The notes: generated by a model not told the origin, from the sequence alone. Positions 28,037 through 59,899 are shown, numbered from the stretch's first letter. The stretch: 64,000 nucleotides of DNA from Planctomycetota bacterium (GCA_965223265.1 OZ244999.1:1536001-1600000); one strand, 5' to 3'. Numbers and translations: made by a program.

Positions 28037-29230
28037 TCAGGAAGGCGATACAATGTTGAGTGTGGCGAACGCGTTCAGCGCACGCTGCAGAAGCTTGGCG
28101 GCGAGATCTTGCTGCAGCGGTCTGAGTGCGTAGACCGCGGCAAGACGTGAGCGCACCAGTGCCCGGATGACCCCGACCCGTGCGTCGCTCGGGTCATACC
28201 GGAGCGTTGTGAGCAAGTGTTCACTACTTTGGAGGAGACTCGCGGCGCATCGTGGATACTGCAGCGAGCGCAGCAGCAAATGCTCCGAGAGGTTGACAGC
28301 GTCAAAGCACGGATCACCACGGTGCACGTCGTCGAGGTCGATGAGGAAGAGATCTCGTCCGTTGACGAAGCACTGTTTGTCATGCAGATCCCCGTGGACG
28401 AGGCCCTCTCCGAAGGGCTCGGCTTCCGGTAGGCCTCTCACGAGCTCCGTCAGGCGATCCACTTTCGGATTTGCCTCCGCCGCTCGGGAAATCTGTCTCA
28501 AGGTGGCGCCACGTTCGTGCTCGAACGTGCGCCGCGTGAGCTCGGTTGCCGGTGCGAATGACGCGAGTCCATGGCAAACGTCGACGAGAAGTGCAGGGGA
28601 TACCGATTCTTCATTCTTGATGAGGTCGTGAACCGATCGACCTGGGCATGCTTCCGTGAGGTAGCACTGAGCCTTGGAGGAAGAGCCCACTGGTAGGGCG
28701 AAGTGCACGTGGCCCACGGTGCTCGGCAGCGCCTGGAGGGATTCCGCTGCCCGGTCGAAAGCTGAGCGCTTGAGAACTTTGAGATAGAAATCGTGGCATT
28801 CCCCGTGTTCGTCGACCAGCTGCAAGTTGTAGACGGCGCGCCGCCTCGGATGGTAGGCGATCAGGCGTGCGCTGCCGGCGGCGATGCTGTGGAGCTTCGA
28901 CTCGTGGTCACGAAGCGTCAACCCACCCTCTTCGAGTAGCCGACAGCCGCATAGTTTGTCGTCGTCGGCTGGTGTGAGCGTCTCCAAGTGCGGTGCACGC
29001 TTCTCCTTTGCCGATCGATCTGCTTCTCTCTGCGATAGCGTGAACACCGCTGGCTCGGCGCTTCTCGGTCGCACCACGACCGCTGCTTCTTCGCTTCCCA
29101 GAGGGCGAGTGAGAACGGAGGGAGGGCCATCTCTTGTGTCGAAGCGCTGCAGAAAATCGAGTCCAGCAGGACTGGAGAGCCACGCCGACAGACGGCTGAT
29201 CGGAGTGGACGTGAATTTGCCGGCTGTCAC
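28037..29230 (-). CDS. Aminoglycoside phosphotransferase (APH)-like kinase
   Basis: GTGA overlap with GGAGG RBS; YHPRRRAV, FYLK, LVHGDLHDKQ, LIDLDD, GDPCFD. Confidence 0.82.
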   Translation of the reverse strand: MTAGKFTSTPISRLSAWLSSPAGLDFLQRFDTRDGPPSVLTRPLGSEEAAVVVRPRSAEPAVFTLSQREADRSAKEKRAPHLETLTPADDDKLCGCRLLEEGGLTLRDHESKLHSIAAGSARLIAYHPRRRAVYNLQLVDEHGECHDFYLKVLKRSAFDRAAESLQALPSTVGHVHFALPVGSSSKAQCYLTEACPGRSVHDLIKNEESVSPALLVDVCHGLASFAPATELTRRTFEHERGATLRQISRAAEANPKVDRLTELVRGLPEAEPFGEGLVHGDLHDKQCFVNGRDLFLIDLDDVHRGDPCFDAVNLSEHLLLRSLQYPRCAASLLQSSEHLLTTLRYDPSDARVGVIRALVRSRLAAVYALRPLQQDLAAKLLQRALNAFATLNIVSPS

Positions 29231-30528: not shown

Positions 30529-32366
30529 AGCTTCACCTGAGGCGTGCCTGGTCGTTCCGCGTCGAAGGGGAATCCAGACGTTACAGCGTCCGCGTTTGTC
30601 ACCTCGCGCGCTTCGAGCTCTCGAACACTGCCGTCTTCGAAGAGAATCACCCGGTCGACACGCCGCAGAATCTGTGCGCGGTGTGTGATGATGAGAACGG
30701 TGCGCTGTCGCAGCGTCGCGAGAACTTCAGACGACATGAGGGTTTCCGCGTCCGCGTCGAGTGCACTCGACGGCTCATCGAGAATGACGATCGGCGATCG
30801 CCTCAAGAGAGCGCGCGCGACAGCGACGCGTTGCCTCTGACCTCCCGAGAGCGCTGATCCTCGCTCGCCCACGCGAGTCTCCATGCCGCGCGGCAGACGA
30901 TTCGCGAACGCTGCCACTCCACTGCTCACAGCGGCCTTGACGATTTCTTCGTGCGAAGCTTCGGGGCGTCCCAGCTGCACGTTCTCATAGAGCGTGCCGT
31001 CGAAGAGGACGGAGTCTTGAAAGACGACGCTCACTTGGGCGCGTACTTCTTCGACTCCGAGGTCTTGGACATCGTAGCCATCGATCAGGACGCGTCCGGA
31101 GCTCGGAACGCGCAACCTAGGGATCAAGGATACGAAGGTGCTCTTGCCCGAGCCGTTCGCGCCTATGAGTGCAACGTGTTCACCGGCTGCGATGTTGAGA
31201 TTGATCGAGCGTAAAACAGGACAAGAATCTTCATGTGCAGGCTCATAGCTGAACGAAACTTCTGAGAAACGAATCTCTCGCCCCGAGCTCGGAGTCGGCA
31301 GAGTCGCCTGCTCGGTGGCTGCCGCAGTCTCACGGCAGGCGTCACGCGCGCTGAGGATTTCGATCAGACGTTCGCCGCTCGCGGCGGATTTCAACAGTTT
31401 CGAGCTGCGGTGAACCATGCCGCGCACCGGCTTGTAGAGCGAGCGAGCGTACGAGAGAACGACGAGGAGCTCACCCGCGGTGAGCGCGTCGTCAAGAACG
31501 CGATACGTGCCGACGAGGAGGATGAGTGCCGTGGAGCCTGAGAGCGACACCTCGGTCCAGCGACTCATGGCCCCTTCCATGCGGACCGCGGCGAGTCCCG
31601 CCTTCAGACTCTTGCGATTCTGTCTGGCGAATCGTCTTGTCGTTTCGGCTGCGAGGTCGTAGCCCTGCACAACTTCAACTGCGCCGAGCGACTCGCCCAT
31701 GACCGCGGCGATCTTGCCCTCTTTGCGGCGCTGGCGCGAGGCCGCTTGTTTGAGCCGTTTGCCGTAAAACGCGACCACGACCGCCACGGCCGGCAACACC
31801 AGAACCGTGACGACGGTCAGGCGGACGTCAAGCAGCAGCATGACGGAAATCGTTCCGACCACGACGAGCGCCTGTTGGACGAGTGTAAAAGCTCCCTCGA
31901 CCAGAAATTCCCGCATCATCGACGTGTCTCCGGTCAGCCGTGCGAGCAGGTCGCCCGAGCGATGTCGGTCGTGGTATTCGAGCGGCAGCTCCATGAGGAT
32001 GCGGTGGACGTCGACGCGAATGTCAGCCACGACCTGTTGTCCGACGCGAGCCAGAAGGATCGTCTTCGCGTAGGCACACGCTCCGCCGATTGCGGTCGCG
32101 CCAAGAAGCGCGGCGCACGAGAGCAGAAGCAGAGTGGTGCGGGAATCCTGCAGGGAACGAGGAAGAAGGTCGAGCGGTTGAGCGAGAATCACTTGATCGA
32201 TCACAACCTTGATCGGCCACGGTCGCAGCATCTCGAAGACGATGAAGCCAAACGTCGCAAGGGCTGCGAGCGCCAGCGATGACCGGTAGGGGCGAGCATA
32301 AGGCCAAAGTCGGCGAAACGCCGCTGCCATCAACTGTCGGCGGGAGCTCGCTCCGGCATCGTTCAC
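30525..32366 (-). CDS. ABC transporter, fused permease/ATP-binding exporter
   Basis: PWPIKVVID TM region; GANGSGKS, LSGGQRQR, ILDEPSSALD, ITHR. Confidence 0.92.
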   Translation of the reverse strand: MNDAGASSRRQLMAAAFRRLWPYARPYRSSLALAALATFGFIVFEMLRPWPIKVVIDQVILAQPLDLLPRSLQDSRTTLLLLSCAALLGATAIGGACAYAKTILLARVGQQVVADIRVDVHRILMELPLEYHDRHRSGDLLARLTGDTSMMREFLVEGAFTLVQQALVVVGTISVMLLLDVRLTVVTVLVLPAVAVVVAFYGKRLKQAASRQRRKEGKIAAVMGESLGAVEVVQGYDLAAETTRRFARQNRKSLKAGLAAVRMEGAMSRWTEVSLSGSTALILLVGTYRVLDDALTAGELLVVLSYARSLYKPVRGMVHRSSKLLKSAASGERLIEILSARDACRETAAATEQATLPTPSSGREIRFSEVSFSYEPAHEDSCPVLRSINLNIAAGEHVALIGANGSGKSTFVSLIPRLRVPSSGRVLIDGYDVQDLGVEEVRAQVSVVFQDSVLFDGTLYENVQLGRPEASHEEIVKAAVSSGVAAFANRLPRGMETRVGERGSALSGGQRQRVAVARALLRRSPIVILDEPSSALDADAETLMSSEVLATLRQRTVLIITHRAQILRRVDRVILFEDGSVRELEAREVTNADAVTSGFPFDAERPGTPQVKL

Positions 32367-33724
32367 GGCGATCTGTCTCCAATCGCATCGGCGACATGAC
32401 TCTTTGTCCCGTGGTGCGCAACGCGCGACAGTTTCTCGGCCGCTGGTCGAGAGATGCTGTCGTCGTGGCTGGGGTCGACGTCGCCCGATTGGGTAGAATC
32501 CCAGCCGAGAAGTTCGAGTAACTCACTCGCTAGGCGCCGCCACGTGAAGCGATGGAGCGCGTAGCGTTGAGCTCGAGCAGCGAGCGCCAACCGTCGCGGT
32601 GTGTCGTCGACAAGACGGTGGAGCGCGGAGACGAAAGCCTCGACGCAGCTAGGTGCGAACAGCTCGACGAGTGGCTGATCGGGGTTTCCCGCAACGATCT
32701 CTCGCACCGGCTCCGTGTCGCTGGCGAGCACCGCCGTGCCGGCTGCCATGGCCTCGACGATCTTGAGCGGCGAGAAATATGTTGGGCTCTCCTTGGTGTA
32801 AGGGGCGACGGCGATGTCGGCGGCGCGAAGAATGCCGGGGATCGACTCGTGAGGCACTGCGCCGTCGAAGACGATCGTGCCGCGTTGATTTCTTGCGTAC
32901 TCGCGGACGACGTTTTTGAGCGGTCCATCGCCGACGATCCAAAGGCCGAGTCGCCGCGACTTGGCGGCCATGTGGAACGCATCGAGGAGAAAATCTATTC
33001 CGTGCCACGGTTTGAGAGAGCCGGCGAACACGAGCACTGTCCGGCCGCGAAGGGATTCAGGAACGTTTGCGGCTCTGGAACCATCGGCCTTGGAACTATC
33101 GGTTTTGGAAGCCTCGACGAAGGCGTCTCCGACGCCGTTGTGAAAGACCCGGATACGCTCCCGCTCCACTCCTTCGTCCTCGAGCAGGCGTGCCAGAACG
33201 TCGGAGACAGCGATGACCCAATCGGCGGAGAGGAGCGTATCGCGTGCCAAACCGCGTGCTCCGGCCGACAATTCAAGTCCGCGGAAGGCGGAAGCTTCGA
33301 ACCATAGAGGTGAGTTGACTTCGAGTATGTGCGGGATTTGTGCGGTGCGTGCGTAGACGGATCCCGCGATCCCGAAGAGGGAGAAGCGTTCGTAGACCGC
33401 GTCGTGTGGCCCACGGGAGCGGAGTGCATCGAACACGACAGACTGATTCGCCAGCAATCTCGTCTCTCGTTCGAGGAGCGATTTTGATTTCGCCGCGAGA
33501 CTGAGAGTGACGGCCTGATTGGGCTCGGAGTGCTGAAACCGTCGCGCCATATGGATGTCGAGGTCGACACCGCGGCAGGCGAGCGCATGGGCCATCTCGC
33601 GAAAGTGCACCGACGCTCCCTTGGTGCCATCGGGGGGGATTCCCGGGTCAGTCGTCATGTAAGCGAGCCGAGGTCGTTCGACGGGGTGGTGCCCCCTTTC
33701 TCCCGGTGGTTGCGCGCTGCTCAC
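32363..33724 (-). CDS. Glycosyltransferase family 4
   Basis: DPGIP..GTKGASVH, VYERFSL, LEVNSPL, FAGSLKPWHG, YFSPLKIVEAMAAG. Confidence 0.9.
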   Translation of the reverse strand: MSSAQPPGERGHHPVERPRLAYMTTDPGIPPDGTKGASVHFREMAHALACRGVDLDIHMARRFQHSEPNQAVTLSLAAKSKSLLERETRLLANQSVVFDALRSRGPHDAVYERFSLFGIAGSVYARTAQIPHILEVNSPLWFEASAFRGLELSAGARGLARDTLLSADWVIAVSDVLARLLEDEGVERERIRVFHNGVGDAFVEASKTDSSKADGSRAANVPESLRGRTVLVFAGSLKPWHGIDFLLDAFHMAAKSRRLGLWIVGDGPLKNVVREYARNQRGTIVFDGAVPHESIPGILRAADIAVAPYTKESPTYFSPLKIVEAMAAGTAVLASDTEPVREIVAGNPDQPLVELFAPSCVEAFVSALHRLVDDTPRRLALAARAQRYALHRFTWRRLASELLELLGWDSTQSGDVDPSHDDSISRPAAEKLSRVAHHGTKSHVADAIGDRSP

Positions 33725-34971
33725 GGTGCGACTCCGGCGGCACCGACAGGTTGGCGTTCGGCGAACAGTGCGGCCAGTCGCCCGACGTTGCGGCGTAAAT
33801 CGAATTCCGCCTCGGCGCGACGTCTGCCGTTTTCTGCCAGCTGCCGGCGGCGCTCATCGTCGCGTAAGAGGCTGGAGATCGCTGCGCTCAGCGAGGCAAC
33901 GTCGTCGCACGGCACGATCACCCCAGCGTCCCCACCGGCAAGGATTTCCTCGACACCTGCGACCGGGGTGCTGACGACCGGAAGGCCCGCAGCGAGCGCC
34001 TCGAGGAGGATCGTTGGCAGCGCGTCACGATTGCCGTCGTTTCCGACTGTGCACGGTAGTGCTGTTAACGTCGCCTGCGAGAGCAAGTCCCGCACCTCGT
34101 CGTGCGTGCGCGCACCGAGCAGCTCGACGTTGGTAGCGCCGGTCTCCTCCGTGAGCTTCTCGAGTCGCTCTCGCTCCTCGCCCTCGCCGACGATGAGGAC
34201 GCGGAGCTTCGGATGCGCTTTCGCCAACCGCGCCGAGGCACGGATGAGGACGTGGAAGCCTTTCTTTTCGACCAGTCGGCCAACACCCAGGACGATCTGG
34301 GGAGTCGCCTCGGTGACGTGCGGGGCGTCGCGCGCATCGGGATGGAAGACGTTGAGATCGACGCCGTTGTAGAGACGCTTCACGTCGAGAGTGGTACCCC
34401 GCAGCAACTTCTCGCGCACGTGGGCTTGGTTGGCGTCGCACACGGTCACGGCGAAGCTTGCGTCGCGCACCAGCCGTTGAAACGCCTTGGGGTTGACCGT
34501 GTCGCGATAGATATCTTTGGCATGGCACGTGAACGAGTAAGGCTGACCTGTGATGGCGTGCGCTACACGAGCGACTTGCGTCGCCACAGTGGCGAAGTGA
34601 GCATGCAAGTGTTCGATACCGCGCCTTTGCGCCTCAATGGCGAGCAAGACGCCCCAGCGCAGCCTGGGCCACGGGTTGTCTGGGTGTTCGTCAAGAAGTT
34701 CGGCGAGAACCTCAAAGATCTCATCGCGGCGGCTGCGAAACAGATCGATGTGCGCGCCCAGCGTCCGTGCCATCGACGCAGCCTTCGGGTCCGGCATGTA
34801 GACGACGGAACCTTTGAATTCGCAGACGCCTGGATGAAACAGGCCGTCGTCGGGGCGATGGATCGAGAAGACGGTGACGTTATGTCCCCGCCGCTCGAGT
34901 TCGAGAAGTTCGTTGAGGATGAACGTCTCCGAGAGGCGCGGATATTTCTTTAGGACGTAACCGATGTTCAC
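33721..34971 (-). CDS. Glycosyltransferase family 4 (WcaL-like)
   Basis: YVLKKYPRLSETFILNE, HLHAHFA, HAKDIY, VGRLVEKKG, DALPTILLEALAAG. Confidence 0.92.
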   Translation of the reverse strand: MNIGYVLKKYPRLSETFILNELLELERRGHNVTVFSIHRPDDGLFHPGVCEFKGSVVYMPDPKAASMARTLGAHIDLFRSRRDEIFEVLAELLDEHPDNPWPRLRWGVLLAIEAQRRGIEHLHAHFATVATQVARVAHAITGQPYSFTCHAKDIYRDTVNPKAFQRLVRDASFAVTVCDANQAHVREKLLRGTTLDVKRLYNGVDLNVFHPDARDAPHVTEATPQIVLGVGRLVEKKGFHVLIRASARLAKAHPKLRVLIVGEGEERERLEKLTEETGATNVELLGARTHDEVRDLLSQATLTALPCTVGNDGNRDALPTILLEALAAGLPVVSTPVAGVEEILAGGDAGVIVPCDDVASLSAAISSLLRDDERRRQLAENGRRRAEAEFDLRRNVGRLAALFAERQPVGAAGVAP

Positions 34972-35017
34972 GGCGAGCCTCCTTGCGGTAGCGGGGAGAA
35001 AAAAACCCTCTGGGACG

Positions 35018-36340
35018 TCATATCGACGAAGCTTTCGCTGCCTCCACGCGTTCAGTCAGGAGTGCCGCCGCGACGTCGGCGCCGTTGAACGTGAAGCCGC
35101 AAGCCGTCGGCTCTGGGGGAGGGGAATCGAGCCGTTCGCTGATGGCCTGGGCGATGGCGCTGGGATTTTGAAGATCGTCGGGTCGTAAAACTTTCGCGAG
35201 TCCGAGTCGCTCCAAACGTGTGGCGCGCTCGAGCTGTTCTTCGCGTGGCGTACAGCGTGGTGTGATGAGAAGACGCTTCTTGAATGCCAACGCTTCGTAG
35301 ACAGAGTTGTAGCCGCCCATCCCGATGATCAAATCTGCGGCGGCGACGAGCTCTTCCAAGTCGCGCCGTGTCCGCATGAGTGAAAGCCGGGGGTCGCGCC
35401 GTGTGACACGTTCGAGTCGTTGGCGTTTCGAACAGCTCATGAGAGGGCCTGTGACGATGTCCGCCGAGAGGTTGCGATGGCGCAGAGGGCCTCGAAGCGC
35501 CGCGATCGTCGCCCGCAGGACGCCGTATGCATCGCCTCCTCCTCCGGCGCAGACGAGAAGACGTGGCGAGCCTGCGAGAGGCTCAACATGCGGGTCAGCG
35601 AGGGTCGGCGACGCTGGTGGCGACACGATTCCGACGTACGTGAGTTTGTCTGCGAGCGATTGCGGCAGGTCGTATTCTTGGGCGACGTCGAAGAACTCGC
35701 GCAGCCCGTAGACAACGATGTCATCGTAGAGCTGCATCCATTCGAGAGTCTTTCCGGAGAGCTCGAGCTTGCCGCGATGAGGCGAGTCGATGATGTCGCG
35801 CATGCCGAGGACGACGCGGGCTGCAGGGTCGCGCCCTTGTGCGGCACGCAGGGGTGCGATCAATTCGCCGAGAACGCCGCCGGGGGCATGGTCGACGACG
35901 ACGAGGTGTGGCCGAAACTCAGTCCAAGCGGCAAGAATGATCTCTTGTCGTAGAGTGAGCGCTTTATCTGCTGACAATCCGAGACGCCTGGGAACGTAGT
36001 CGCCGCGGCCGTCCTTGGTGAACGAGGGGAGTTTGATGAAGTCGGTGCGATGCGGCAGTCGGAACAGGTCAGGGCGCGGCGAACCGGTGACGCAAAGGAT
36101 GGTTGTCTCCGGATTGCGGTCGGCGAGTGCCTGCGCAACAAGAGTCGTGCGGCGGTAGTGCCCGAGGCCGTACGAGTCGTGGCTGAACAGGAGGACGCGG
36201 CTTGCCGGACGCGGGAGACGGAGGCGGCTCTTCGTTGTCCTGCGCTTTTCGGGCGGAGCCTGAGCGATCCTCGGTGACTCCAGAGTCGCGTCGTTTCGTG
36301 CAACTCGTCGGTCGGCGGGGGCGTGAGTTTCAAGTGTCAC
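35018..36340 (-). CDS. Predicted glycosyltransferase, COG4671 / GT28-like fold (start uncertain)
   Basis: LFSHDSYGLGHYRR, VVDHAPGG, LGMRDIID, GGGGD, GMGGYNSVYE, PR...REEQL.RA. Confidence 0.88.
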   Translation of the reverse strand: MTLETHAPADRRVARNDATLESPRIAQAPPEKRRTTKSRLRLPRPASRVLLFSHDSYGLGHYRRTTLVAQALADRNPETTILCVTGSPRPDLFRLPHRTDFIKLPSFTKDGRGDYVPRRLGLSADKALTLRQEIILAAWTEFRPHLVVVDHAPGGVLGELIAPLRAAQGRDPAARVVLGMRDIIDSPHRGKLELSGKTLEWMQLYDDIVVYGLREFFDVAQEYDLPQSLADKLTYVGIVSPPASPTLADPHVEPLAGSPRLLVCAGGGGDAYGVLRATIAALRGPLRHRNLSADIVTGPLMSCSKRQRLERVTRRDPRLSLMRTRRDLEELVAAADLIIGMGGYNSVYEALAFKKRLLITPRCTPREEQLERATRLERLGLAKVLRPDDLQNPSAIAQAISERLDSPPPEPTACGFTFNGADVAAALLTERVEAAKASSI

Positions 36341-36796
36341 AGCGGGAGCCTCGACGGGGAATGGGTGATCAAGGGCGAGCGCGCTGCGTGACCGTGACGA
36401 CGGCAGGGCGAACGACCGTGGTCTCCGGTCGCCCCTCGCAGATTTGGGAATATATTCCCAAAACAATCTGGAGTCAAGTGATTCTAGGAGCTTTCCTGCT
36501 TTGGCAGGCTGCTAAGGCCTTTCGAACCGTCGCCGAGTGTGGCGCGGTGCCCGGTGCCCATCGCCGGCCGTCGTGGCGATCTGGGCGGTGTCGTCGTCCC
36601 AGGGCGGACTCGATAGCTAGTTGAGAGCCGCGCCGTGCGATTTACGCTGTCGGCGGAGACGATCGCGCTACGGCGACGGGAGCGCTGAACGGATACGATT
36701 CAGCGCACTGAATACTTACCACGACCCGGGGGATTGAGGTTTGGACGACGGGGTGTGATGGGGCGAGGAGCGACGTCGGCCGAGTCGCCACTCGAA

Positions 36797-45985: not shown

Positions 45986-48900
45986 ATGAAACGATGGAGA
46001 GCGTCCGGTCGGTTTTTCCTTGCTGCGTTGCTTTTCCTTATGTCGTCAGCGCCCGTCACCGCTCAGAGTTATCTGCCCGGCGACGCGAACGACGACGGGG
46101 CCGTCGACATCAGCGATCCGATCAACGTTTTGATCTACCTTTTCGCTGGTCCGTTCGAGCTGCGCTGCCCGAACGCCGCCGATGCGAACGCTGATGACAG
46201 CGTCAATCTTTCGGACGCCATTTGGCTCTTGCAGAGTCTCTTTCGTAACGGCAGCCCACCCATCGCAAAGCCTGGCGAAGACTGCAGTGGCGACGGTACG
46301 GACGATCTTGACGACACCGTGGCGGGCGACATCTTCGACAACACGACGTTCCTCTACAGTGGCCTGCAGCCGGTGCAGATCGGTGTCGCTCCCGGGACGA
46401 TCGACAAGCTGCGCGTGACCGTGATTCGCGGCACAGTTGCGGATGAAAGCGGGCCACTCGCCGGAGTCGAGGTCACGGTCATGGACCACGCCGAGCTAGG
46501 CTACACGTTCTCTCAGAGCGATGGCTGGTTCAGCTTGGCGGCGAACGGCGGCGGACGGCTGACGCTCGTCTTTAGGAAGTCGGGCTACATGCCGGTCCAT
46601 CGAGCGGTGGATGTCGGTTGGCGCGAGTACACGTTCACCGACGACGTCTTCATGAAACCCTACGACAGCGAAGTCACAGCGATTACGCTCGGCGCGGGAG
46701 TGATGCAGGTGGCGCGCGGCAGCATCTCCACAGATGCTCATGGTCCGCGCCAGGCGACGCTGCTTGTGCCCCCAGGAACAACGGCGACGATGCATCTCCC
46801 GGGCCCGCCGCCGACGCAGCAGGCGCTGGCGACGATGAACGTACGCCTCACCGAGTACACGACGGGCCAGAATGGCCCCGACGCGATGCCCGCCGGCCTG
46901 CCGCCGACCACCGCGTACACGTACGCGATCGAACTCAGCGCCGACGAGGCGGTGGCTGCTGGGGCGACGTCGGTCGAGTTCAACCAAGCGGTGATCGTGT
47001 ACGTGGAGAATTTCCACGATTTCGAGATCGGTCAGGCCGGTCCTTTAGGCTTTTACGATCGCGACGCGGGCCAATGGGTGCCCATGCCGGACGCGGTCAT
47101 TCTCGAAATGGTCGGAGAATCCGGAGGCATGGCCCAGCTCGATCTGAGCGGCGACGGCAGCGAAGATTCAGAGCTCTACGCCGCGGTGGGAATTACCGAC
47201 GCGGAGCGGGCGAAGCTGGCAGAGCTCTACAGTGCACCCGAGCAGCTCTGGCGCATGGCCGTGACGCACTTCTCGGCGTTTGACCTCAACTGCGGCTTTG
47301 TCGAACTACTCGAGTGCATTGCCGGCAGGGGGGACTGTTCGCCGCTTCTTGAGCCGTTTTCAACCGGCGACAAGGACGACACGTGCAGGCTCCCGGGGTC
47401 GACGATCGAGATCCAAAACCAGATTCTTGGCCAGCGCATTCCGATCAAGGGAACGCCCTATTCCCTGCACTACCAGAGCGATCGCATGCCTGGCTTTGAG
47501 GCCGCATACCGGCTCGAGATCCCTGTGATCGGTGACTACACGCTGCCGGCGAACATCGAAGACGTCATTGTCGATATTTGGGTGGCCGGCAAGCGCGAGA
47601 GTTTCGAGGTGCTTTCGGAGCTCAACTGCCCAGGGCAGCTGGTGTGCACCGGGCCCTACAACTTTTCATGGACTTGGGATGGCAAAGGCCTCTTCGATCT
47701 GCCGTTTCAAGGCGCGCAAGAGGCGGTGGTGCGACTCGGCTACCGGTTTCTGCGCGATTACGCCACCTGGCCGTTCGAGACGGGGGCGGCGACCTTCGCT
47801 GCTTGGCCCGAAGGTACTGAGGTCGTCGACGAGGGCAGCTCGTCGGAGTACCAGAAGTACACCGCATGGACGACGTTCAGGGTTGGCGTCGGCGCTTGGA
47901 GCAACACACCGCTCGGGCTCGGCGGGTTCAGCATCGATGTGAATCACAGCTACAGCCCGTCAAGGCGCACACTCCACCTCGGTGATGGCCGCCGCCGCAG
48001 TAACACCGGTACGGGCGGGGTGATTGATTTCTTTGCTGGCGGGCAGGCGGGTGGCACCAGTGAAGACGACGGCATCTCGGCACTCGAAGCCAATATTGGC
48101 AACGCGCCGGCTGGCATGGCTTTTGCCCCTGACGGCACGCTCTATCGACCGGTGGAGACCGGGCTCAACACGAGTATCCGGCGGATCGACCCCGACGGCA
48201 CTGTCTTCCACGTGACGAAGAAGACGCGCTTTTCGGACTGCGACTCGGAAGGCGATGGAGGGCCTGCGATCCTCGCTGAGGTCTGCGGTGCCGAGGACGT
48301 CGCGATCGGGCCAGACGGCAGCCTTTACATCGCGGAGACCGACGCGAACAAGATCCGCGTCATTGATGCGAACGGTATTATCTCCACTTTTGCGGGCACC
48401 GGCGCGGACGTGTATGCGGGCGACGGCGGACCGGCGCTTGCAGCAAGCTTCACGCGTCCGCGTCGCATCGCCATCGGTCCCACCGGCGATATTTTCGTTC
48501 TGGATGAGATGACTCCTTCTGACGCCGTGGTTCGGAGGATCAGCCCCGCGGGCATCATCACACGCGTCGCCGGCGGGGGCAGCACCGTCGCTGATAGTGG
48601 GTTCGCTCTCAACCTTGATTTCAGCGGCTCGTTCGGCGTCGACATCGATGTGAGTTCCGATGGAATTCTGTACATTGCGGGGCCCTATTGGTCGGTCTAC
48701 CGCGTCTTGCCGGATGGCAACGCATCGATCGCGGCCGGTCAGCTCCTCGACCCCGGAGCCTCGGGCGATTTCGGGCAAGCGACCCAAGCCAGGCTCCGGC
48801 CGCAGGCGATCCACGTCGACCGCGATGGTGCGCTCTACATCGCCGTACAGGATGTCAACCAATTCGCTTCGGGCTCGCAGCCCGGTGTGCGCCGCGTCGG

Positions 48901-51900
48901 ACCGGACGGCATCATCACGACGGTGGTTGGCGGTCCCGACGAGGACGGCGACTGCCGTCCAGCGTGCAATGTGCCCGGAGTCGCCACCGGGGCGGAGCTT
49001 CAAAGCGCTGCGATCCAGACGGTAACGATTGCGCCGGACGGAGACCTGTACTTGGCGAGTAGCAACCGCATCTATCGCGTCGGCCTGGCACTCCCCGGTG
49101 CAGCGAGCGACGAGTTCACGGTCGCCTCCGAAGATGGTCAAGAGGTCTACGTCTTCGACGCGCGCGGCCGCCACTTGTTCACTCGCGACGCCTTCACAGG
49201 TGTCGATCTGTACACGTTCATGTATGACGGGGAAGGCCGCCTCACTAAGATCATCGACGTCGACGGCCTCGAGACCGAGATCTTTCGCGGCACCGGCGTC
49301 ACCATCATCGGACCCCACGGGCATACGACGACGCTTAAGGATGCCGACGAGAACGGTTTCTTTCAGACGGTTTCATTACCGGAGCCGATTTCGGGAGACT
49401 ACCAGCTCGAGTACGACGGCGGGGGTCTCCTGATACGGTTCACGTATCCCAACGGGAACGAGAGGACCTACGGCTACAGCGACGGTACCGAACCGCACGG
49501 CTTCGCCGGCCTCCTCGAGGAAGCGACCGATGCACTCGGCACGCGGACGTTCACGCGCAACAACTTTGGCGACACGAGCGGCTTCGGTGTGGTCGTCAAT
49601 CATGCCGAGGCGCCGAGCGATAGCTTGTCGGTCGTCGAAGAGCACGCCGACGGCAGCGAAACGTGGACAAACACCACGCCGGACGTCCGGCAGACGGTCA
49701 TCGAGCTCGGCATGAACGGTGTCACCCGGACGACCCTTAGCGACGGGTCTGTGGTGACCCTTACCGCTGGCCCCGATCCTCGCTTCGGCATGCAGTCGCC
49801 GGTGGTGAACGAGTTGGAAATCGCGACTGGGACGCGCGTTTTCAACCTCCAGACTGCCCGGGCGGTCACGCTGTCCAACTCCACCGATCCGTTCAGCCTA
49901 GAGACATGGACGGAGACGACGTGCATCAACGGCGCCGTCGATAGCTCGACGTGCGTTGGCGCTGACAGCGGCGTCACCACGGAGTTCAACGCCACGGGGC
50001 CGGTCAATACGATCGTCCGCACAACGAACGCAGGACGCGTCAGTGTCACCGAGCTCGACGCTGCCGGTCGGCCGACCGCGCTGGCTGTGGTTTCCGCTTC
50101 GGTTCCCGTAGCGGACGTAACGTTCGACTACAACGATGGGGCGATCGATCCGCTCAAGCGAGGTCAGCTCACTGCGGTTACGTTTTCAAGCGGCGGCGAG
50201 CAGCGGGTCTACTCGTTCACGTACGATGCTGACGGCAATCCTCAGACGATGACCGACCCGCTGAGCCGCACGGTGACTCTGATACCGGACGGCGCGACGC
50301 GCATTGTCGGCCAGCAGCGTCCGGACTCAAGTGTGGTTGCCTACAGCTATGACGGCAGCGACAACGTCACAAGCATCGACCCGCCGGGCGAGAACGTCAG
50401 CAACCTGCACACGTTTGAGTTCAACGGGGTCGACTTCCTGCAGACCTACACTGCTCCGAGCGTCGGCCTCTCGAGCCATGAGAACAGATTTGACCTCAAC
50501 GGCGATCGCCAGCTCGATCTCATCACGCTCAACGATGGTGGGGCGGAGTCGACGATCGACCCGGGCTATGACCTGTTTGGTCGTCTCTGGTTCATAGCGC
50601 TCAGTCCGAACGGTGGGTCGTCGTGGAGCTTGCAGTACAGCTATGTCGCGAGCGGCCCGGATCTCGGCAAGCTCGAGACTGTGAATACCACCAGGGACGA
50701 AGTCACGATCACATACAGTTACGATGGTGCCTTTGTGGACAGCGTCGAGTGGAGTGGGGCGGGCATTCCCGGCACTCACAGCGTAACGTACGCATACGAC
50801 AACGCATTTCGCATCACCAGCGAGCAAGTCGACCAAGAGGCCGTGGTGAGCTTTCAATACGGCGATGCCGACGGACTGTTGACCAGCGCGGGCGCGCTCG
50901 GGCTGATCCGCGATAGCGACACGGGGATCCTGACCGGGACCACCCTGAGCGCTGATGGCGCCATGGTCAGCGACACCGTCGTCGTCACGCCGTTCGGCGA
51001 GCTCGCGAGCTACACGGCTCAGCACTCGAGTGCTGGCGTGCTCTATGACGTGAGTTACACGCACGATGCAAGCGGTCGCATCGAAGGGAAGAGCGAGACC
51101 ATTCTGGGTGCGACCACCTATTACGGTTACATCTATGACGCCGCCGGTCGACTCGATCGGGTTTACCAGGGGAGTGTAGCGCCGTGTGACCCGCCAGCCA
51201 GCTGCACGCTCGCAGCGGACTATGCCTATGACGCCAACGGCAACCGCGATCCAGGCAGCTGCACCTACGATCTGCAAGACCGGCTCACGGGCTGTGGCGC
51301 GACCACGTACACGTACACCGACTGGGGGGCTCTAGCAGCGAAGACCGATGGGACGGGTACCACGAGTTACGTTTACGATCTCTTAGGGAACCTACGCAGC
51401 GTGGCAGCACCGGGGGCTGCGGTGATTGACTACGTCATCGACGGCGAGGGTCGGCGCATCGGCAAGAAGCTCGACGGCACGCTCGAAAAGGTGTGGCTCT
51501 ACCGCGACGACCTCAACCCGGTCGCTGAGCTTGACGGCAGCGGCAACGCTCAAGCGATTTTCGTCTACGGCACGAAACTTCACGTCCCAGACTACATGGT
51601 GAAGGTCAGCGGTCCTGACGCGGGAACCTATCGCCTGGTCACCGACCACCTCGGCAGCGTGCGCCTGGTCGTCGATGTGGCGACGGGCGCGGTCGCGCAG
51701 CGGCTAGACTACGATGCGTTCGGCGTTGTGCTGCAGGACACGAGTCCAGGCTTTCAGCCCTTCGGGTTCGCTGGCGGACTCTATGATCCCGACACCGGGT
51801 GGGTGCGTTTTGGCGCGCGCGACTACGCGCCGGACATCGGACGCTGGACGGACAAGGATCCCATCGGATTCGAGGGACAGGACACGAACCTTTACGCCTA

Positions 51901-52303
51901 CGCGGGGAGTGATCCGCTCAACCGGATCGATCCGGAGGGGACGGTGCCGGTGCCTGTGTTAGTTGGTGCAGGAGTGTTCTTTGTCGGCGACATCATCTAC
52001 CAGCTGGCGACCAACGGACCTTGCGAGGAGTTCAGCTACGTCGAGTTGGCCGCAGCGACCGCTGCCGGGGCTGGTGGTGGATATCTCTTCCACGTCGTTC
52101 GCGCTGCCATCGCAGCACCTACTGCAGCCGAGCTCGGGAGACGAGCCGCCGAGGCGGAGCGGCGTGGACAGCTGCGAGCGCTCGAAAAAACCATCGGCAA
52201 GCAGCTCCGACAGTCGGAGAAGTTCATCCGAGAAAACGGCAAACCCGTCTATGAGGCGGTTGACGACGCGGTCAAGAAGTGGGGGAAAGACATCTACAAG
52301 TGA
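45986..52303 (+). CDS. Bacterial teneurin-like RHS/YD-repeat protein with N-terminal dockerin and C-terminal cargo domain
   Basis: AGGAG RBS, signal peptide, GDANDDG dockerin, TTR-like VIRG..DG.FSLAANGG, FN-plug LHYQSDR, NHL GDGGPA repeats, YD repeats, RHS core PFGFAGGLYD..DPIG..NLYAY..DPLNRIDPEG. Confidence 0.92.
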   Translation: MKRWRASGRFFLAALLFLMSSAPVTAQSYLPGDANDDGAVDISDPINVLIYLFAGPFELRCPNAADANADDSVNLSDAIWLLQSLFRNGSPPIAKPGEDCSGDGTDDLDDTVAGDIFDNTTFLYSGLQPVQIGVAPGTIDKLRVTVIRGTVADESGPLAGVEVTVMDHAELGYTFSQSDGWFSLAANGGGRLTLVFRKSGYMPVHRAVDVGWREYTFTDDVFMKPYDSEVTAITLGAGVMQVARGSISTDAHGPRQATLLVPPGTTATMHLPGPPPTQQALATMNVRLTEYTTGQNGPDAMPAGLPPTTAYTYAIELSADEAVAAGATSVEFNQAVIVYVENFHDFEIGQAGPLGFYDRDAGQWVPMPDAVILEMVGESGGMAQLDLSGDGSEDSELYAAVGITDAERAKLAELYSAPEQLWRMAVTHFSAFDLNCGFVELLECIAGRGDCSPLLEPFSTGDKDDTCRLPGSTIEIQNQILGQRIPIKGTPYSLHYQSDRMPGFEAAYRLEIPVIGDYTLPANIEDVIVDIWVAGKRESFEVLSELNCPGQLVCTGPYNFSWTWDGKGLFDLPFQGAQEAVVRLGYRFLRDYATWPFETGAATFAAWPEGTEVVDEGSSSEYQKYTAWTTFRVGVGAWSNTPLGLGGFSIDVNHSYSPSRRTLHLGDGRRRSNTGTGGVIDFFAGGQAGGTSEDDGISALEANIGNAPAGMAFAPDGTLYRPVETGLNTSIRRIDPDGTVFHVTKKTRFSDCDSEGDGGPAILAEVCGAEDVAIGPDGSLYIAETDANKIRVIDANGIISTFAGTGADVYAGDGGPALAASFTRPRRIAIGPTGDIFVLDEMTPSDAVVRRISPAGIITRVAGGGSTVADSGFALNLDFSGSFGVDIDVSSDGILYIAGPYWSVYRVLPDGNASIAAGQLLDPGASGDFGQATQARLRPQAIHVDRDGALYIAVQDVNQFASGSQPGVRRVGPDGIITTVVGGPDEDGDCRPACNVPGVATGAELQSAAIQTVTIAPDGDLYLASSNRIYRVGLALPGAASDEFTVASEDGQEVYVFDARGRHLFTRDAFTGVDLYTFMYDGEGRLTKIIDVDGLETEIFRGTGVTIIGPHGHTTTLKDADENGFFQTVSLPEPISGDYQLEYDGGGLLIRFTYPNGNERTYGYSDGTEPHGFAGLLEEATDALGTRTFTRNNFGDTSGFGVVVNHAEAPSDSLSVVEEHADGSETWTNTTPDVRQTVIELGMNGVTRTTLSDGSVVTLTAGPDPRFGMQSPVVNELEIATGTRVFNLQTARAVTLSNSTDPFSLETWTETTCINGAVDSSTCVGADSGVTTEFNATGPVNTIVRTTNAGRVSVTELDAAGRPTALAVVSASVPVADVTFDYNDGAIDPLKRGQLTAVTFSSGGEQRVYSFTYDADGNPQTMTDPLSRTVTLIPDGATRIVGQQRPDSSVVAYSYDGSDNVTSIDPPGENVSNLHTFEFNGVDFLQTYTAPSVGLSSHENRFDLNGDRQLDLITLNDGGAESTIDPGYDLFGRLWFIALSPNGGSSWSLQYSYVASGPDLGKLETVNTTRDEVTITYSYDGAFVDSVEWSGAGIPGTHSVTYAYDNAFRITSEQVDQEAVVSFQYGDADGLLTSAGALGLIRDSDTGILTGTTLSADGAMVSDTVVVTPFGELASYTAQHSSAGVLYDVSYTHDASGRIEGKSETILGATTYYGYIYDAAGRLDRVYQGSVAPCDPPASCTLAADYAYDANGNRDPGSCTYDLQDRLTGCGATTYTYTDWGALAAKTDGTGTTSYVYDLLGNLRSVAAPGAAVIDYVIDGEGRRIGKKLDGTLEKVWLYRDDLNPVAELDGSGNAQAIFVYGTKLHVPDYMVKVSGPDAGTYRLVTDHLGSVRLVVDVATGAVAQRLDYDAFGVVLQDTSPGFQPFGFAGGLYDPDTGWVRFGARDYAPDIGRWTDKDPIGFEGQDTNLYAYAGSDPLNRIDPEGTVPVPVLVGAGVFFVGDIIYQLATNGPCEEFSYVELAAATAAGAGGGYLFHVVRAAIAAPTAAELGRRAAEAERRGQLRALEKTIGKQLRQSEKFIRENGKPVYEAVDDAVKKWGKDIYK

Positions 52304-52330
52304 TAGAGGAGTCGTCGTAGCTTCGTCTCC

Positions 52331-52358
52331 AAAGTAGCAGGCACGCTCCGCGTGCCGT
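52331..52358 (+). repeat. GTAG-type REP element (copy 2, compensatory variant)
   Basis: AAAGTAGCAGGCACGCTCCGCGTGCCGT; stem GGCACGC/GCGTGCC. Confidence 0.85.
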
Positions 52359-52505
52359 AGCCGAAGACCGAGCGGTCGCCACCGACTCCAAAGCTGATGC
52401 CTTCGCATCCACATTGGCCGCGGCCGATAGCAGTTATCTTGGGGTTCCGTTCCATGACGCCTTCGCGCTGAGCGCGAAGGTCGGTTTCTGGGGCGAATGC
52501 CCTTG

Positions 52506-53633
52506 TTACCGAGCGTCCCCTCGGTCGAACACCGCGCGCGCATACTCCGCGCTCGCTAGGTCGAGCTGCTGCTGCGCCACGACAGGCAGCGCGATCTTCG
52601 TGCCGCCGAAGTTGTCGGTGACGTGTTCGACTTTTTCCGCGCCAGCGAGCACCGTGGTGATCTCCGGGCGGGAGAGTGCCCAGGCGATGCAGACCTGCGC
52701 ACGCGTTGCACCGATGTCGCGGGCGACCGCATCGAGCGCGTCGCGGACTTTCTCCATCGGGTTCCCTGGTTCGATCGGGCGCATTAGCCGGCCTTCCGAA
52801 AGAGGGCTGAACGCCATGATGCCGAGGTTGCCGTGGCGAATGAGCGGAAAGAGCTCCTTTTCGGCGAAGATGCCGCGGTCCCCTGCGGCGATGTTGTAGT
52901 AGTCCTGCAGGCTCGCCAGGGGCGCGAATCCTGGCTCGCGGCTCTTCGCGATCATGGCGGCGATCGATGCGGGCGGGTGATTTGAAACGCCCCAGTAGCG
53001 AATCTTGCCTGACTTGACGAGGGCGCTCATCGACTCGACGATCTCTTCGGGTGGGGTGACGTCATCAGGACCGTGCAGCGAATAGATATCGATGGAATCG
53101 GTGCCGAGACGCCGGAGGCTGCCTTCGCAGTGCTTGAAGAGGCGCTCGCGCGTGAATGGCATGCGAGGAGTGTCGGGTCCATCCGTTTCAGGAATCTTGG
53201 TCGAAATGACGATGCGATCCCTTTTGCCCTTCACGGCGACGCCGAGGAGCTCTTCGGCTCCGCCCCAGCCGTAAGCTTCAGCAGTGTCGAAGAAGTTCAC
53301 GCCGATGTCGATGGCGTGTTCGAGCACACGCCGACCGAGCTCGTTTTCTTTGCTGCGTCCCTTCGGTCCCATCTCCCGAAACGCCGTCCCTTGGCAGAGT
53401 CGCGAAACGTAGAGGTCGGTGTGGCCGTAGCGAACGCGATCGCCGCTGGATCCACTGGAGAAGTGGCGGCAGCCGCTCAGTCCGCCGACGAACGCTGCGC
53501 CGGCCAATGCGGCGCAGGATTTCAGGAAGTCGCGACGGTCGGCGCTGGCGGGCCGCTGTTCTCGCGGCGAGCGCGCTGGCGCGGTGGTGGATTGTTTCGT
53601 GTCGGTCGTCGGGCGGTGAGTCGTCTCGGTCAT
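52506..53633 (-). CDS. Aldo/keto reductase with Tat (lipoprotein-like) signal
   Basis: DRRDFLK..LSGC; FFDTAEAYG, ISTK, SLRRLGTDSIDIYSLH, GKIRYWGVSN, FSPLSEG. Confidence 0.9.
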   Translation of the reverse strand: MTETTHRPTTDTKQSTTAPARSPREQRPASADRRDFLKSCAALAGAAFVGGLSGCRHFSSGSSGDRVRYGHTDLYVSRLCQGTAFREMGPKGRSKENELGRRVLEHAIDIGVNFFDTAEAYGWGGAEELLGVAVKGKRDRIVISTKIPETDGPDTPRMPFTRERLFKHCEGSLRRLGTDSIDIYSLHGPDDVTPPEEIVESMSALVKSGKIRYWGVSNHPPASIAAMIAKSREPGFAPLASLQDYYNIAAGDRGIFAEKELFPLIRHGNLGIMAFSPLSEGRLMRPIEPGNPMEKVRDALDAVARDIGATRAQVCIAWALSRPEITTVLAGAEKVEHVTDNFGGTKIALPVVAQQQLDLASAEYARAVFDRGDAR

Positions 53634-54567: not shown

Positions 54568-55482
54568 ATGCGCACCTCACAAGCGATCGGCATCTTGGGA
54601 GCGACCTTGCTCTCCGTGTTTCCTACGCGCGGCGGCAGCTCACTCAAGGCGCAGACGACGTTCGTGCGCGGCGACGTCGACGTCGACGGATCTCTCAGTG
54701 TGACTGACGCCGTGCGCATCCTGCGGCATCTCTTTGCAACGCGGCCGGTCCAGCTCGACTGTGCCGACGCGGCGGATGTTGATGACAACGGGCGTCTGCA
54801 GGTGACCGATGCGATCGCGCTGCTGAGTTTTCTTTTCGCCAGCGGCACCGAGCTGGCAGCGCCGTTTCCCACCTGTGGTGCGGATCTCACTCTTGATGAC
54901 TTGGGGTGTGAGTTCGCGCCGCCGTGCGGGGAATTGTCCTTCGCGGGCCTGCCACTCAAAGGAGACGGCCTCTTTTTCGTCGTCGATCGATCCGGATCGA
55001 TGCAGGACGAGGGAGAGTTAGCGATCGCCAAGCGAGAACTTGTCCGCACCTTGAGCCACCTTCCGCCTGACTATGAATTCAGCATTGTTTTCTTCGACCA
55101 AGGGCTCGTTCAGTTTCCGGCGGACGGGAGTCCATTCTCCGCCACGCCTGAGAACATCGAGGCTGCCGTTGAGTGGGTCGCTTCCGTTCCGGGCAGCGGC
55201 GGCACGTGTCCACAGCGGGGGCTCCTGAGCGCTTTAGACACCGCGACGAGGTCGACGGCAGACCAAAAGGAGATCGTCTTCGTCGGCGACGGCGGCGCCG
55301 TGTGCGGCGGCGACAACGAGTTTTTGCATCTGCAGGAGACGCTTTCCGTGGTCGGTGAGCAGAACACCGAGGGCGTGACGATCGACAGCGTCGGCATCCT
55401 CGACCTCGGCGTCACCCAGCGGGAGTTTTTGCGAAAACTCGCCGCGCAAAACGGCGGCGAATTTGTGCAGTTCTCGCTCTAG
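54568..55482 (+). CDS. Dockerin-like + von Willebrand factor A domain secreted protein
   Basis: Signal peptide; FVRGDVDVDG..TDAV / DVDDNG..TDAI; FVVDRSGSM (MIDAS DxSxS), GGT, VGDG, LRKLAAQNGG. Confidence 0.88.
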   Translation: MRTSQAIGILGATLLSVFPTRGGSSLKAQTTFVRGDVDVDGSLSVTDAVRILRHLFATRPVQLDCADAADVDDNGRLQVTDAIALLSFLFASGTELAAPFPTCGADLTLDDLGCEFAPPCGELSFAGLPLKGDGLFFVVDRSGSMQDEGELAIAKRELVRTLSHLPPDYEFSIVFFDQGLVQFPADGSPFSATPENIEAAVEWVASVPGSGGTCPQRGLLSALDTATRSTADQKEIVFVGDGGAVCGGDNEFLHLQETLSVVGEQNTEGVTIDSVGILDLGVTQREFLRKLAAQNGGEFVQFSL

Positions 55483-59005: not shown

Positions 59006-59899
59006 ATGGCGAGCGAAGGCGGCAGGCCGAGTCGCGGCGATCTAACCCCCGAGACTATGGTTGAGAGGCCCTCGCGTAATCATCGGCGGCCTGCGATTCT
59101 TCTCGTCGTCGTGGTGTCGATGCCTCTCGCAGCGCTTCTCTTGTTCATGGCCAAGCAGAGCTTCGATCGCTCGGTGAGTCGCGCGCTCGGTGAAGGGCTC
59201 GCGGACACTGCGTCCCGCGCGAAGGAAGCGATTTCGCGTTGGGACGGGGAGGACTGGCAGAAAGTGTATCGAGCCGCTGGAGCCGTTTTCGATTTGACGA
59301 CTCTGGGCAAGGAGGTCGAGCGGCTGCCCTTACCCTGCAGTGCATTCGACCAAGTGGTCACGGCGACGAAACGGACTCTTCGTCAGGAGGACGTCTTGAC
59401 CGCGGCGTTGACGCATTGGATGCGACAGGACCTCCTCGAGAGGGTGGAGGCACCGTCGACCAGCGCAAGGCCTTTGGCGGATCTCGCCACCCTAGAAATC
59501 CTTGAGTTTGCTCGCCGGCAGAGCCTCGGCGAGAAAGGACGGGCGGAGCTCGGGCGAGCAGAGCACGCGGTCGCGCGTGCAGTGGCAGCTGCTCCGATTC
59601 ATTGGCGGCCTCGTTTTCTACAAGCCGCGCTGAAGTACCTGGAGTCATACGGTAAGCCGCATCATGACGAGGCGATTCGCGCGTTCGAGGAGCTCCTGGA
59701 TCGCCAGGCATCCGAGCCGCGGCGAGACGAACACGTCTGGACCTATCTTTTCCTCGGGAATCTCTATCTCGAAGCGCGCTCGAGGATCGAGGCACGGGAG
59801 ATTTGGCAGAGGGGACTGGAGGTTTTTCCCGAGGACGATCGGCTTTCCGGTCGTCTTCAGCAGTATCCATCGCACTCTTCCACGAGCCGAGGTCTTTGA
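59006..59899 (+). CDS. Membrane-anchored tetratricopeptide-repeat protein
   Basis: GGGAGG RBS; N-terminal TM; YLFLGNLY....EAREIWQRGLEVFP TPR consensus. Confidence 0.75.
   Translation: MASEGGRPSRGDLTPETMVERPSRNHRRPAILLVVVVSMPLAALLLFMAKQSFDRSVSRALGEGLADTASRAKEAISRWDGEDWQKVYRAAGAVFDLTTLGKEVERLPLPCSAFDQVVTATKRTLRQEDVLTAALTHWMRQDLLERVEAPSTSARPLADLATLEILEFARRQSLGEKGRAELGRAEHAVARAVAAAPIHWRPRFLQAALKYLESYGKPHHDEAIRAFEELLDRQASEPRRDEHVWTYLFLGNLYLEARSRIEAREIWQRGLEVFPEDDRLSGRLQQYPSHSSTSRGL

Follow-up and report, generated by a model that had tools for sequence, protein, structure and literature searches.

Introduction

Bacterial teneurin-like proteins (TLPs) are the closest described counterparts of the protein considered here, which is encoded at 45986..52303 (+) in a 64,000-nucleotide stretch of DNA from a Planctomycetota bacterium (GCA_965223265.1 OZ244999.1:1536001-1600000), referred to below in its whole length as the window. 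PMC13018210 (Nat Commun 2026) reports cryogenic electron microscopy structures of a Bacillus TLP together with toxicity and immunity assays, and defines TLPs by three hidden Markov models (HMMs): FN-plug, NHL and YD-shell. Autocleavage is described there at two positions, within the FN-plug and within the RHS core (PxxxxDPxG motif). TLP cargos are given as approximately 15 kDa on average; a hydrophobic Bacillus cargo permeabilises Escherichia coli when sent to the periplasm, other cargos have other activities, and 'almost all' TLP genes are followed by a matching immunity gene. According to the same paper, the way TLPs are displayed at the surface is presumably set by their variable N-terminal modules; the surface location comes from sequence inference only and the mechanism of delivery and release is stated to be unknown. 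The six phyla that its text lists as containing TLPs do not include Planctomycetota.

In the window protein, a TLP core is preceded by a dockerin-like module, referred to here as the tag, and it is this tag, not the TLP architecture, that is new. WapA-type toxins likewise possess a YD/RHS shell, are exported by Sec and are held at the surface by an N-terminal binding module, independently of both type VI secretion systems (T6SS) and Tc machines; WapA binds the cell wall and is not known to possess the TTR, FN-plug and NHL modules of teneurins. In the window TLP, by contrast, the proposed receptor is a protein cohesin rather than the cell wall. The original prediction for this gene, made from the DNA sequence, had proposed a display route that bypasses T6SS and Tc. 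Such a route is not new in itself: the TLP core and its toxin nature are already characterised in PMC13018210, and surface display through N-terminal modules, independent of T6SS and Tc, is already proposed there for TLPs.

Cohesin and dockerin modules have been described outside cellulosomes. A 'planctosome', a non-cellulosomal cohesin/dockerin surface assembly, was hypothesised for freshwater Planctomycetes from domain architectures (PMC6461901, ISME J 2019); as described, it involves peptidases anchored via a lamin-tail-domain protein in another lineage, and includes neither toxin carriers nor the family of proteins described below in which two cohesin-like domains lie between two dockerins (Doc-Coh-Coh-Doc). 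PMC13483458 mentions cohesin and dockerin modules in passing for PT-TG polymorphic toxins, and no other connection between such modules and polymorphic toxins emerged from the literature searched. A search of the literature on dockerins and Planctomycetota, bacterial teneurins, and polymorphic RHS toxins found no dockerin-tagged TLP, planctomycete TLP, or Doc-Coh-Coh-Doc family. The word 'dockerin' has no occurrence in the text of PMC13018210 or in five of its text supplementary files; its Supplementary Fig. 1c, which concerns N-terminal modules, may bear on the point.

Domain architecture and family membership

The gene is a single open reading frame (ORF) with an ATG start and encodes 2105 aa followed by a stop codon. 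Its features are:

45986..52303, + strand: whole gene, a TLP by ORF list and translation; best Protein Data Bank (PDB) sequence match 'Teneurin-like protein' 9pt5_A/9ifo_A, E 8e-242
45986..46063, + strand: Sec-type, signal peptidase I (SPI)-like signal peptide, residues 1-26, read by eye from the translation
46070..46321, + strand: dockerin-like tag, residues 29-112, two Ca-loop/helix repeats plus Cys61 and Cys100, from Pfam, alignment A1, AlphaFold2 (AF2)/Foldseek and a profile search against PDB
46403..46654, + strand: TTR-like domain, residues 140-223, Pfam TTR_TEN1-4, E 3e-22
46655..47365, + strand: insertion between TTR and FN-plug, residues ~224-460, the 'TIP' of PMC13018210, from alignment to the Bacillus TLP, boundaries approximate
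47366..47995, + strand: FN-plug region, residues ~461-670, with C467-x3-G471/S472 aligned to C719/G723/S724 of the Bacillus TLP
48023..49105, + strand: NHL beta-propeller, residues ~680-1040, Pfam TEN_NHL (1.4e-19) and NHL repeat, teneurin-2 alignment from residue 639, boundaries approximate
49118..51709, + strand: YD/RHS-repeat shell, residues ~1045-1908, Pfam TEN_YD-shell (3.2e-26) and RHS_repeat (2.1e-15)
51710..51940, + strand: RHS-associated core, residues 1909-1985, NCBIfam Rhs_assc_core (3.5e-20)
51941..52300, + strand: C-terminal domain (cargo), residues 1986-2105, 120 aa, the region after the DPEG motif

All three modules that define TLPs are found, the NHL and YD-shell by Pfam and the FN-plug only via alignment to the solved TLP; the Pfam FN-plug model matches neither the whole protein nor the isolated region. 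An uninterrupted alignment (E 3e-123) pairs residues 109-696 with residues 365-942 of the Bacillus TLP, a span that covers the TTR domain, an insertion of ~235 aa and the FN-plug. Upstream of the FN-plug, the TTR domain is thus followed by residues 224-460 that align to the Bacillus insertion and match no Pfam model. G471 and S472 are nearly invariant in alignment A2, and the RHS core possesses two DPxG motifs, D1958-P-I-G and D1982-P-E-G, at the predicted C-terminal autoproteolysis site, such that both TLP autoproteolysis motifs, the C-x3-G/S of the FN-plug and the DPIG...DPEG of the RHS core, are intact in the translated sequence. The 120 aa after DPEG form a small polymorphic C-terminal cargo, in that C-termini differ among homologues, and would be encapsulated by the shell. 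These results bear out the TTR, FN-plug, NHL, YD shell and RHS core segments named in the original prediction, whose quoted sequence strings are all found in the translation; its domain list was correct for the parts it named and omitted the insertion between TTR and FN-plug as well as the nature of the C-terminal domain.

A homologue search returned at least 617 relatives of the window protein. The 119 others among the best 120 exhibit 37-46% identity over most of their length, and their N-terminal modules are variable (PKD, Big, cadherin-like, Kelch, FG-GAP, PASTA and others). In species genomes other than the source genome, 405 stretches were confirmed and 74 TLP loci were kept, with titles that include Myxococcota, Gammaproteobacteria, Actinomycetota, Acidobacteriota, Planctomycetota, Lentisphaerae and Gemmatimonadales, among others. 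Planctomycetota are represented in this set by L020, L029 and L044, plus the Scalinduaceae locus L053. Judged by this homology, the window protein is almost certainly a bacterial TLP and thereby belongs to the RHS/YD class of polymorphic-toxin carriers.

The closest solved relative, the TLP of Bacillus inaquosorum (9pt5/9ifo), shares with the window protein the order TTR, insertion, FN-plug, NHL, YD shell and RHS core, both cleavage motifs, a Sec leader, a small hydrophobic cargo, and a Cys beside the FN-plug site together with a single cargo Cys, comparable to the C719-C2216 disulfide of the Bacillus protein. The window protein differs from other TLPs in possessing a dockerin, where they possess Big, adhesin, lipoprotein, S-layer, Ig or PKD modules, and in a planctomycete-like host, the lack of a downstream immunity gene and a cargo without detectable relatives.

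Animal teneurins are matched by the whole protein at E ~1e-60 in the PDB sequence search. Metazoan teneurins (teneurin-2, 6FB3) share this homology across the FN-plug, NHL and YD-shell as well as the TTR_TEN1-4 match, whereas the window protein lacks their intracellular domain, transmembrane helix, EGF repeats and ABD/Tox-GHH C-terminus. The RHS cleavage motif, kept in the window protein, is absent in mammalian teneurins according to the text of PMC13018210. Pfam gave no EGF, transmembrane or Tox-GHH family in the protein, whose N-terminus is a cleavable leader and then the dockerin. The tag therefore sits, as had been proposed, ahead of the TLP core at the position where animal teneurins have their transmembrane/EGF tether. 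Pfam scans of the protein and of 43 window ORFs gave no features of a T6SS Rhs effector (PAAR, VgrG, a loading domain or the corresponding neighbourhood) and no matches to those of a Tc BC component (SpvB, TcdB mid domains or a TcA partner); likeness to TcdB2-TccC3 is confined to the RHS core (E 4.5e-4 in the PDB sequence search).

That the reading frame is open by chance, or is a decayed pseudogene, is exceedingly improbable. The orphan C-terminal domain and the missing Pfam FN-plug match are weak points only, whereas the frame is open over 2105 codons, its GC content by codon position (0.63/0.49/0.76) agrees with that of neighbouring genes, and its TLP homology runs from end to end with conserved catalytic motifs. 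This explanation was rejected on the basis of the end-to-end homology and the codon-position GC.

The N-terminal tag

The leader, MKRWRASGRFFLAALLFLMSSAPVTA followed by QS, exhibits a basic n-region, a hydrophobic core (FFLAALLFLM) and a VTA/QS junction, and lacks a lipobox Cys when read by eye; cleavage after VTA is a guess. The tag that follows comprises two Asp-rich loops, DANDDGAVDISD (residues 33-44) and DANADDSVNLSD (residues 66-77), each with a helix after it. Such a duplicated Ca2+ loop and helix (F-hand) over ~60-70 aa is the characteristic arrangement of dockerins. An alignment of 16 modules (A1) has a clear consensus, FxRGDxNxDG..D(I/L)SD...L..LF.G....C.DA.D.NDDG..D.SD...LL..LF and then more Cys; the Cys that separates the two repeats is invariant.

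The gathering score of Pfam Dockerin_1, a curated cut-off of 22.9 bits, is narrowly missed both by the whole protein (20.6 bits) and by the module taken alone (22.7 bits). When a profile of the tag family was searched against PDB, 20 of the 22 matches were cellulosomal dockerins (best E 9e-8) and the other two were EF-hand Ca2+-binding carrier proteins. An AF2 model of the tag, built on the 16-module alignment, has a predicted local distance difference test (pLDDT) score of at least 90 over the first 60 residues, and the structures that it matches in Foldseek are all dockerins to rank ~32, most of them from cohesin complexes, with target-normalised template modelling (TM) scores of 0.65-0.83 and root-mean-square deviations of 1.7-2.8 A. 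The corresponding E-values are only 0.01-0.1 because the domain is only 60 residues long. The tag very probably has a dockerin fold, and is a Cys-containing planctomycete dockerin subtype. The two-loop dockerin of the original prediction is thus upheld by the model and by the profile matches to solved dockerins despite the narrowly sub-threshold Pfam score, and the AF2/Foldseek comparison runs counter to the possibility raised with it, namely that the N-terminus might lack a dockerin fold.

The same data bear on an alternative in which the tag is a Ca2+-binding, EF-hand-like module that stabilises the protein or assists its folding, or binds something other than a cohesin, such as a glycan, with the TLP soluble and released. 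The sub-threshold Dockerin_1 score and the 2 of 22 profile matches to EF-hand carriers are in keeping with it; the resemblance of the tag fold to dockerins solved in cohesin complexes argues the other way.

Distribution of the tag

Four proteins in the window carry the tag: the TLP, two paralogous FG-GAP proteins and a VWA protein, the last three having it right after the leader. The three further copies are:

1057..1317, + strand: tag on an FG-GAP protein (ORF 655..2616, the real start probably being an internal Met), from motif scan, sequence and A1
5338..5598, + strand: tag on the paralogous FG-GAP protein (ORF 4999..7701), from motif scan, sequence and A1
54661..54915, + strand: tag directly after the signal peptide of the VWA protein (ORF 54568..55482), Dockerin_1 22.5 bits, VWA domains, A1

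Matches of the tag HMM to both FG-GAP tags arise by construction, because these sequences were in the training alignment. Beyond the window, a profile search with the tag returned at least 1864 database proteins at E<=1e-5. A search with the module retrieved 13 proteins, ten of which have the tag at the C-terminus of unrelated domains, the remaining three being multi-copy; the domains ahead of the C-terminal tags include LTD (lamin-tail domain) plus endonuclease, LTD plus lactamase_B, an FG-GAP protein and a lactonase propeller, and 6/10 lack a listed Pfam family.

The tag recurs among TLPs, although few of them possess it. Its HMM matches 8/119 of the other best homologues, of which P0107 and P0115 possess the same tag subtype, and P0024, P0037, P0043, P0062, P0073 and P0091 possess weaker, classical dockerins. 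In a ninth homologue, P0101, Pfam recognises a dockerin to which the tag profile gave no match, and one of the 74 genome TLP loci, L044 from a Planctomycetota metagenome-assembled genome, is matched by the tag HMM. The pairing of dockerin and teneurin-like core, offered earlier as something to be counted in databases, therefore exists and is not unique to this protein. P0107, P0115 and L044 all have the order leader, tag, PKD and TLP; a PKD domain is absent from the window protein, which leaves the tag as its sole module for display.

Related combinations occur in two of the homologues. P0035 possesses an N-terminal cohesin (Pfam Cohesin, 25.4 bits), and in P0091 the dockerin is accompanied by Ig/PASTA modules, the cargo being a colicin D domain. 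TLPs have therefore acquired parts of cohesin-dockerin systems on more than one occasion.

Cohesin-bearing proteins and a candidate partner

The best 120 of the at least 1864 tag proteins, ranked by summed score, were examined for cohesins. Pfam Cohesin is present in 29/120, and 77/120 have either Pfam Cohesin or homology (E<=1e-5) to the beta-sandwiches of one of these proteins, P0204, a figure that overstates the co-occurrence of tag and cohesin because ranking by summed score enriches for multi-tag adaptors. An alignment of 35 sequences (A3) represents a large group of proteins of ~530-600 aa with the order leader, tag, beta-sandwich, cohesin and tag, P0204 among them. Judged by these shared architectures, the tag family is evolutionarily tied to cohesins. 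In the proteins P0204, P0121, P0122, P0187, P0209 and P0140 and in A3, source names are mostly Planctomycetota and one to three cohesin-like sandwiches lie between tags; P0140 alternates four tags with three cohesins. Proteins of the Doc-Coh-Coh-Doc family could self-polymerise.

P0204 (599 aa) scores 32.8 bits with Pfam Cohesin (cut-off 24.1) and 29.9 bits with Dockerin_1. Its AF2 model (mean pLDDT 84.5) exhibits two beta-sandwiches between two helical modules; the best structural match is the adaptor-scaffoldin cohesin dyad 3l8q (E 2e-12), and many single cohesins from cohesin-dockerin complexes are matched with TM scores of 0.66-0.79. P0204 and the TLP gene (P0001) are each reported from one contig of 9,179,496 bp, and P0204 is taken as a candidate partner on the same contig for this reason. 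A candidate cohesin partner is therefore probably encoded in the source genome, contrary to the earlier concern that no binding partner might exist there. Co-folding of P0204 residues 141-505 with the tag gave scores of 0.09, 0.33 and 0.13 against a mark of 0.32, and was counted neither for nor against the pairing. Whether the tag binds a cohesin in vivo is evenly balanced on this evidence, and such binding is treated as putative.

The tag resembles the type I dockerins of cellulosomal cohesin-dockerin systems (3l8q, 4fl4, 2vn5) in its two-repeat Ca-loop/helix fold, and P0204 resembles their adaptor-scaffoldin dyad. The present proteins differ from those systems in that the tagged protein is a toxin carrier and not a glycoside hydrolase, the tag is N-terminal, conserved Cys residues lie within and after the module, the adaptors possess dockerins at both ends, and there is no cellulolytic context.

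The alternative of a stabilising or differently binding tag on a soluble TLP is rather unlikely when these results are added. It gains from the window being without a cohesin and from the very large number of tag-bearing proteins, and loses from the fusion of the tag family to cohesins in many proteins (29/120 by Pfam and 77/120 by homology, in the enriched sample just described) and from a cohesin-dyad protein with the same tag, P0204, apparently on the same contig.

Cargo and downstream region

The cargo begins with a hydrophobic, Gly-rich helix, followed by a weaker second hydrophobic segment and a basic helical tail, and contains a single Cys, C2013. Its hydropathy reaches 1.94 over residues 1986-2004, the hydrophobic start comprising the first 19-24 residues. 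HMMER searches against 1.84 billion representatives retrieved only the window protein itself and one weak repetitive match; the Pfam matches at E<=10 amount to noise (DUF7937 0.058, PT-VENN 0.13); and the best score in a protein atlas, 0.88, is under the level that counts. A membrane-active cargo is favoured because it is hydrophobic like the Bacillus TLP cargo, and the domain may, tentatively and at somewhat less than even confidence, be a membrane-active toxin. By analogy with the same protein, the 120-aa cargo would be cut off and retained within the shell, and C467 and C2013 may form a disulfide comparable to Bacillus C719-C2216.

Similar hydrophobic, Gly-rich starts to that encoded at 51941-52010 of the window are found at the TLP ends of L029 (~15500-15890) and L045 (~15400-15740). 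A Gly-rich stretch lies right after the RHS cleavage motif in unrelated cargos, IPVIVGLAALAG and LIPVLVGAAEGG, the window protein having VPVPVLVGAGVFF. The cargos may have in common, at this start, a helix with a pre-toxin or membrane-entry role.

Downstream of the stop codon lies one further feature:

52304..52505, no strand: intergenic gap of 202 nt before a convergent gene, from the ORF list

The convergent neighbour encodes an aldo/keto reductase with a twin-arginine leader (52506..53633, -). The ORF list, with a minimum of 25 aa, contains no credible + strand ORF for an immunity gene in 52304..52505: the sole + strand ORF after the TLP stop, 52414..52899, is antisense to the reductase and has an atypical GC by codon position (0.49/0.67/0.78), and for these reasons no immunity gene is recognised. 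The window gene thus lacks the immediately downstream immunity gene typical of TLPs. A + strand ORF of at least 50 aa starts between -30 and +200 nt of the stop in 37 of the 41 related loci whose 3' end is complete, a mechanical count that includes some chance ORFs.

These observations are relevant to a different explanation of the protein as a whole, namely that the TLP is mainly an adhesin or cell-cell recognition molecule, like animal teneurins, with a C-terminal domain that is structural or membrane-inserting and not a toxin. No downstream immunity gene would then be needed, and the convergent neighbour and absent + strand candidate, set against the 37/41 related loci with a close + strand ORF, fit this view, as do the lack of a known toxin family or of relatives for the cargo and the cell-to-cell communication role that PMC13018210 leaves open for TLPs. 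It is nevertheless quite improbable: both autoproteolysis motifs that would free the cargo are intact, the tested TLP cargos of similar size described in PMC13018210 are toxic, one of them being hydrophobic, and an immunity gene may sit elsewhere in the genome or be needless if the producer lacks the target.

The gap contains a hairpin, GGCACGC-TCC-GCGTGCC at 52340-52356, within a longer fold (52304..52420, -41.2 kcal/mol, z-score -2.2) that has no T-run; this GC-rich hairpin between the convergent TLP and reductase genes may be a terminator for both. Scans for promoter and terminator consensus around the TLP gene gave nothing useful.

Proposed display on cohesin adaptors

The explanation preferred on balance, with confidence a little above even, is that of a Sec-exported TLP whose tag docks on cohesin adaptors. 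The TLP would first be exported by Sec, after which the shell would fold around the cargo and cleave itself at two sites. The tag would then dock, probably in a Ca2+-dependent manner, on the cohesins of Doc-Coh-Coh-Doc adaptors such as P0204, and the same adaptors might bind one another as well as other tagged exoproteins, namely the FG-GAP and VWA proteins of the window and, elsewhere, nucleases and lactamase-fold enzymes. The toxin carrier would in this way be held in a cell-associated protein mesh and not fired by a T6SS or Tc machine, and the cargo would be released at the target. The comparisons above show the TLP homology, the motifs, the dockerin fold and the co-occurrence of tag and cohesin; that the tag docks, that the protein sits at the surface, and what the cargo does and to which target are inferred.

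Several points weigh against this explanation. Dockerin_1 falls just under its curated cut-off for the window protein and misses the same tag in P0107, P0115 and L044 at E<=0.05. No cohesin was found in the window, in which 43 ORFs were scanned and 15 unannotated ones re-scanned at E<=0.05, and the assignment of P0204 to the same contig depends only on the identical figure of 9,179,496 bp. The link between tag and cohesin is circumstantial, consisting of co-occurrence in proteins (inflated, as noted, by the ranking) and of P0204, with binding as such only proposed. The adaptor family revealed no cell anchor, and the complex may be either displayed at the surface or released. Finally, a cargo without relatives and without an adjacent immunity gene is atypical for a TLP toxin.

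A more elaborate version is unlikely as it stands, in which a planctomycete cohesin-dockerin 'weapon rack' would consist of a self-assembled, cell-associated adaptor mesh that accepts any exoprotein with the Cys-containing tag and displays the toxin for contact-dependent action without an injection machine; after both autocleavages, the dockerin-bearing N-terminal fragment would stay disulfide-linked to the cargo (C467-C2013), keeping the toxin tethered to the scaffold until its release at a target.

Other loci in the window

The window contains families typical of planctomycetes (PSCyt1/PSCyt2/PSD1, DUF1501 and DUF7133, by Pfam), and a PSCyt/DUF1501 gene pair lies upstream of the TLP gene. 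The tagged FG-GAP paralogues, 655..3430 (+) and 4999..7701 (+), are 1.5 kb apart. The first occupies two overlapping frames, 655..2616 and 2402..3430, which correspond to residues 20-594 and 596-900 of the 900-aa paralogue at ~43-45% identity; because the two overlapping frames align to consecutive parts of the paralogue, a frameshift near 2402-2616 is suggested, reflecting either a pseudogene or a sequencing error. The tagged VWA protein, 54568..55482 (+), heads a run of same-strand ORFs to ~63800 that is without Pfam matches except for a TPR protein (59006..59899), and this run may be a Bat-like VWA/TPR cluster.

On the opposite strand, 24511..36466 (-) encodes four glycosyltransferases, an ABC exporter, two APH-like kinases, an alginate-export-like outer-membrane protein and a beta-helix protein, and looks like an exopolysaccharide synthesis and export locus. 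The gene at 17279..22147 (-) encodes a 1622-aa protein with FG-GAP, DUF7133 (E 3e-145), HEAT repeats and a cytochrome c domain, and is adjoined by a divergent gene for an extracytoplasmic function (ECF)-type sigma factor at 22148..22858.

Significance

Should the tag bind no cohesin, the window protein would be simply a further TLP whose N-terminus has an unusual module for Ca binding. If the proposed docking is correct, TLPs would be extended to a planctomycete-like host, polymorphic toxins would be linked to the poorly studied non-cellulosomal cohesin-dockerin systems of Planctomycetota, and a large, undescribed Doc-Coh-Coh-Doc family would be indicated. The question of how TLPs are displayed, which the text of PMC13018210 leaves open, gains a simple and testable domain pair: the tag and a cohesin-dyad adaptor.

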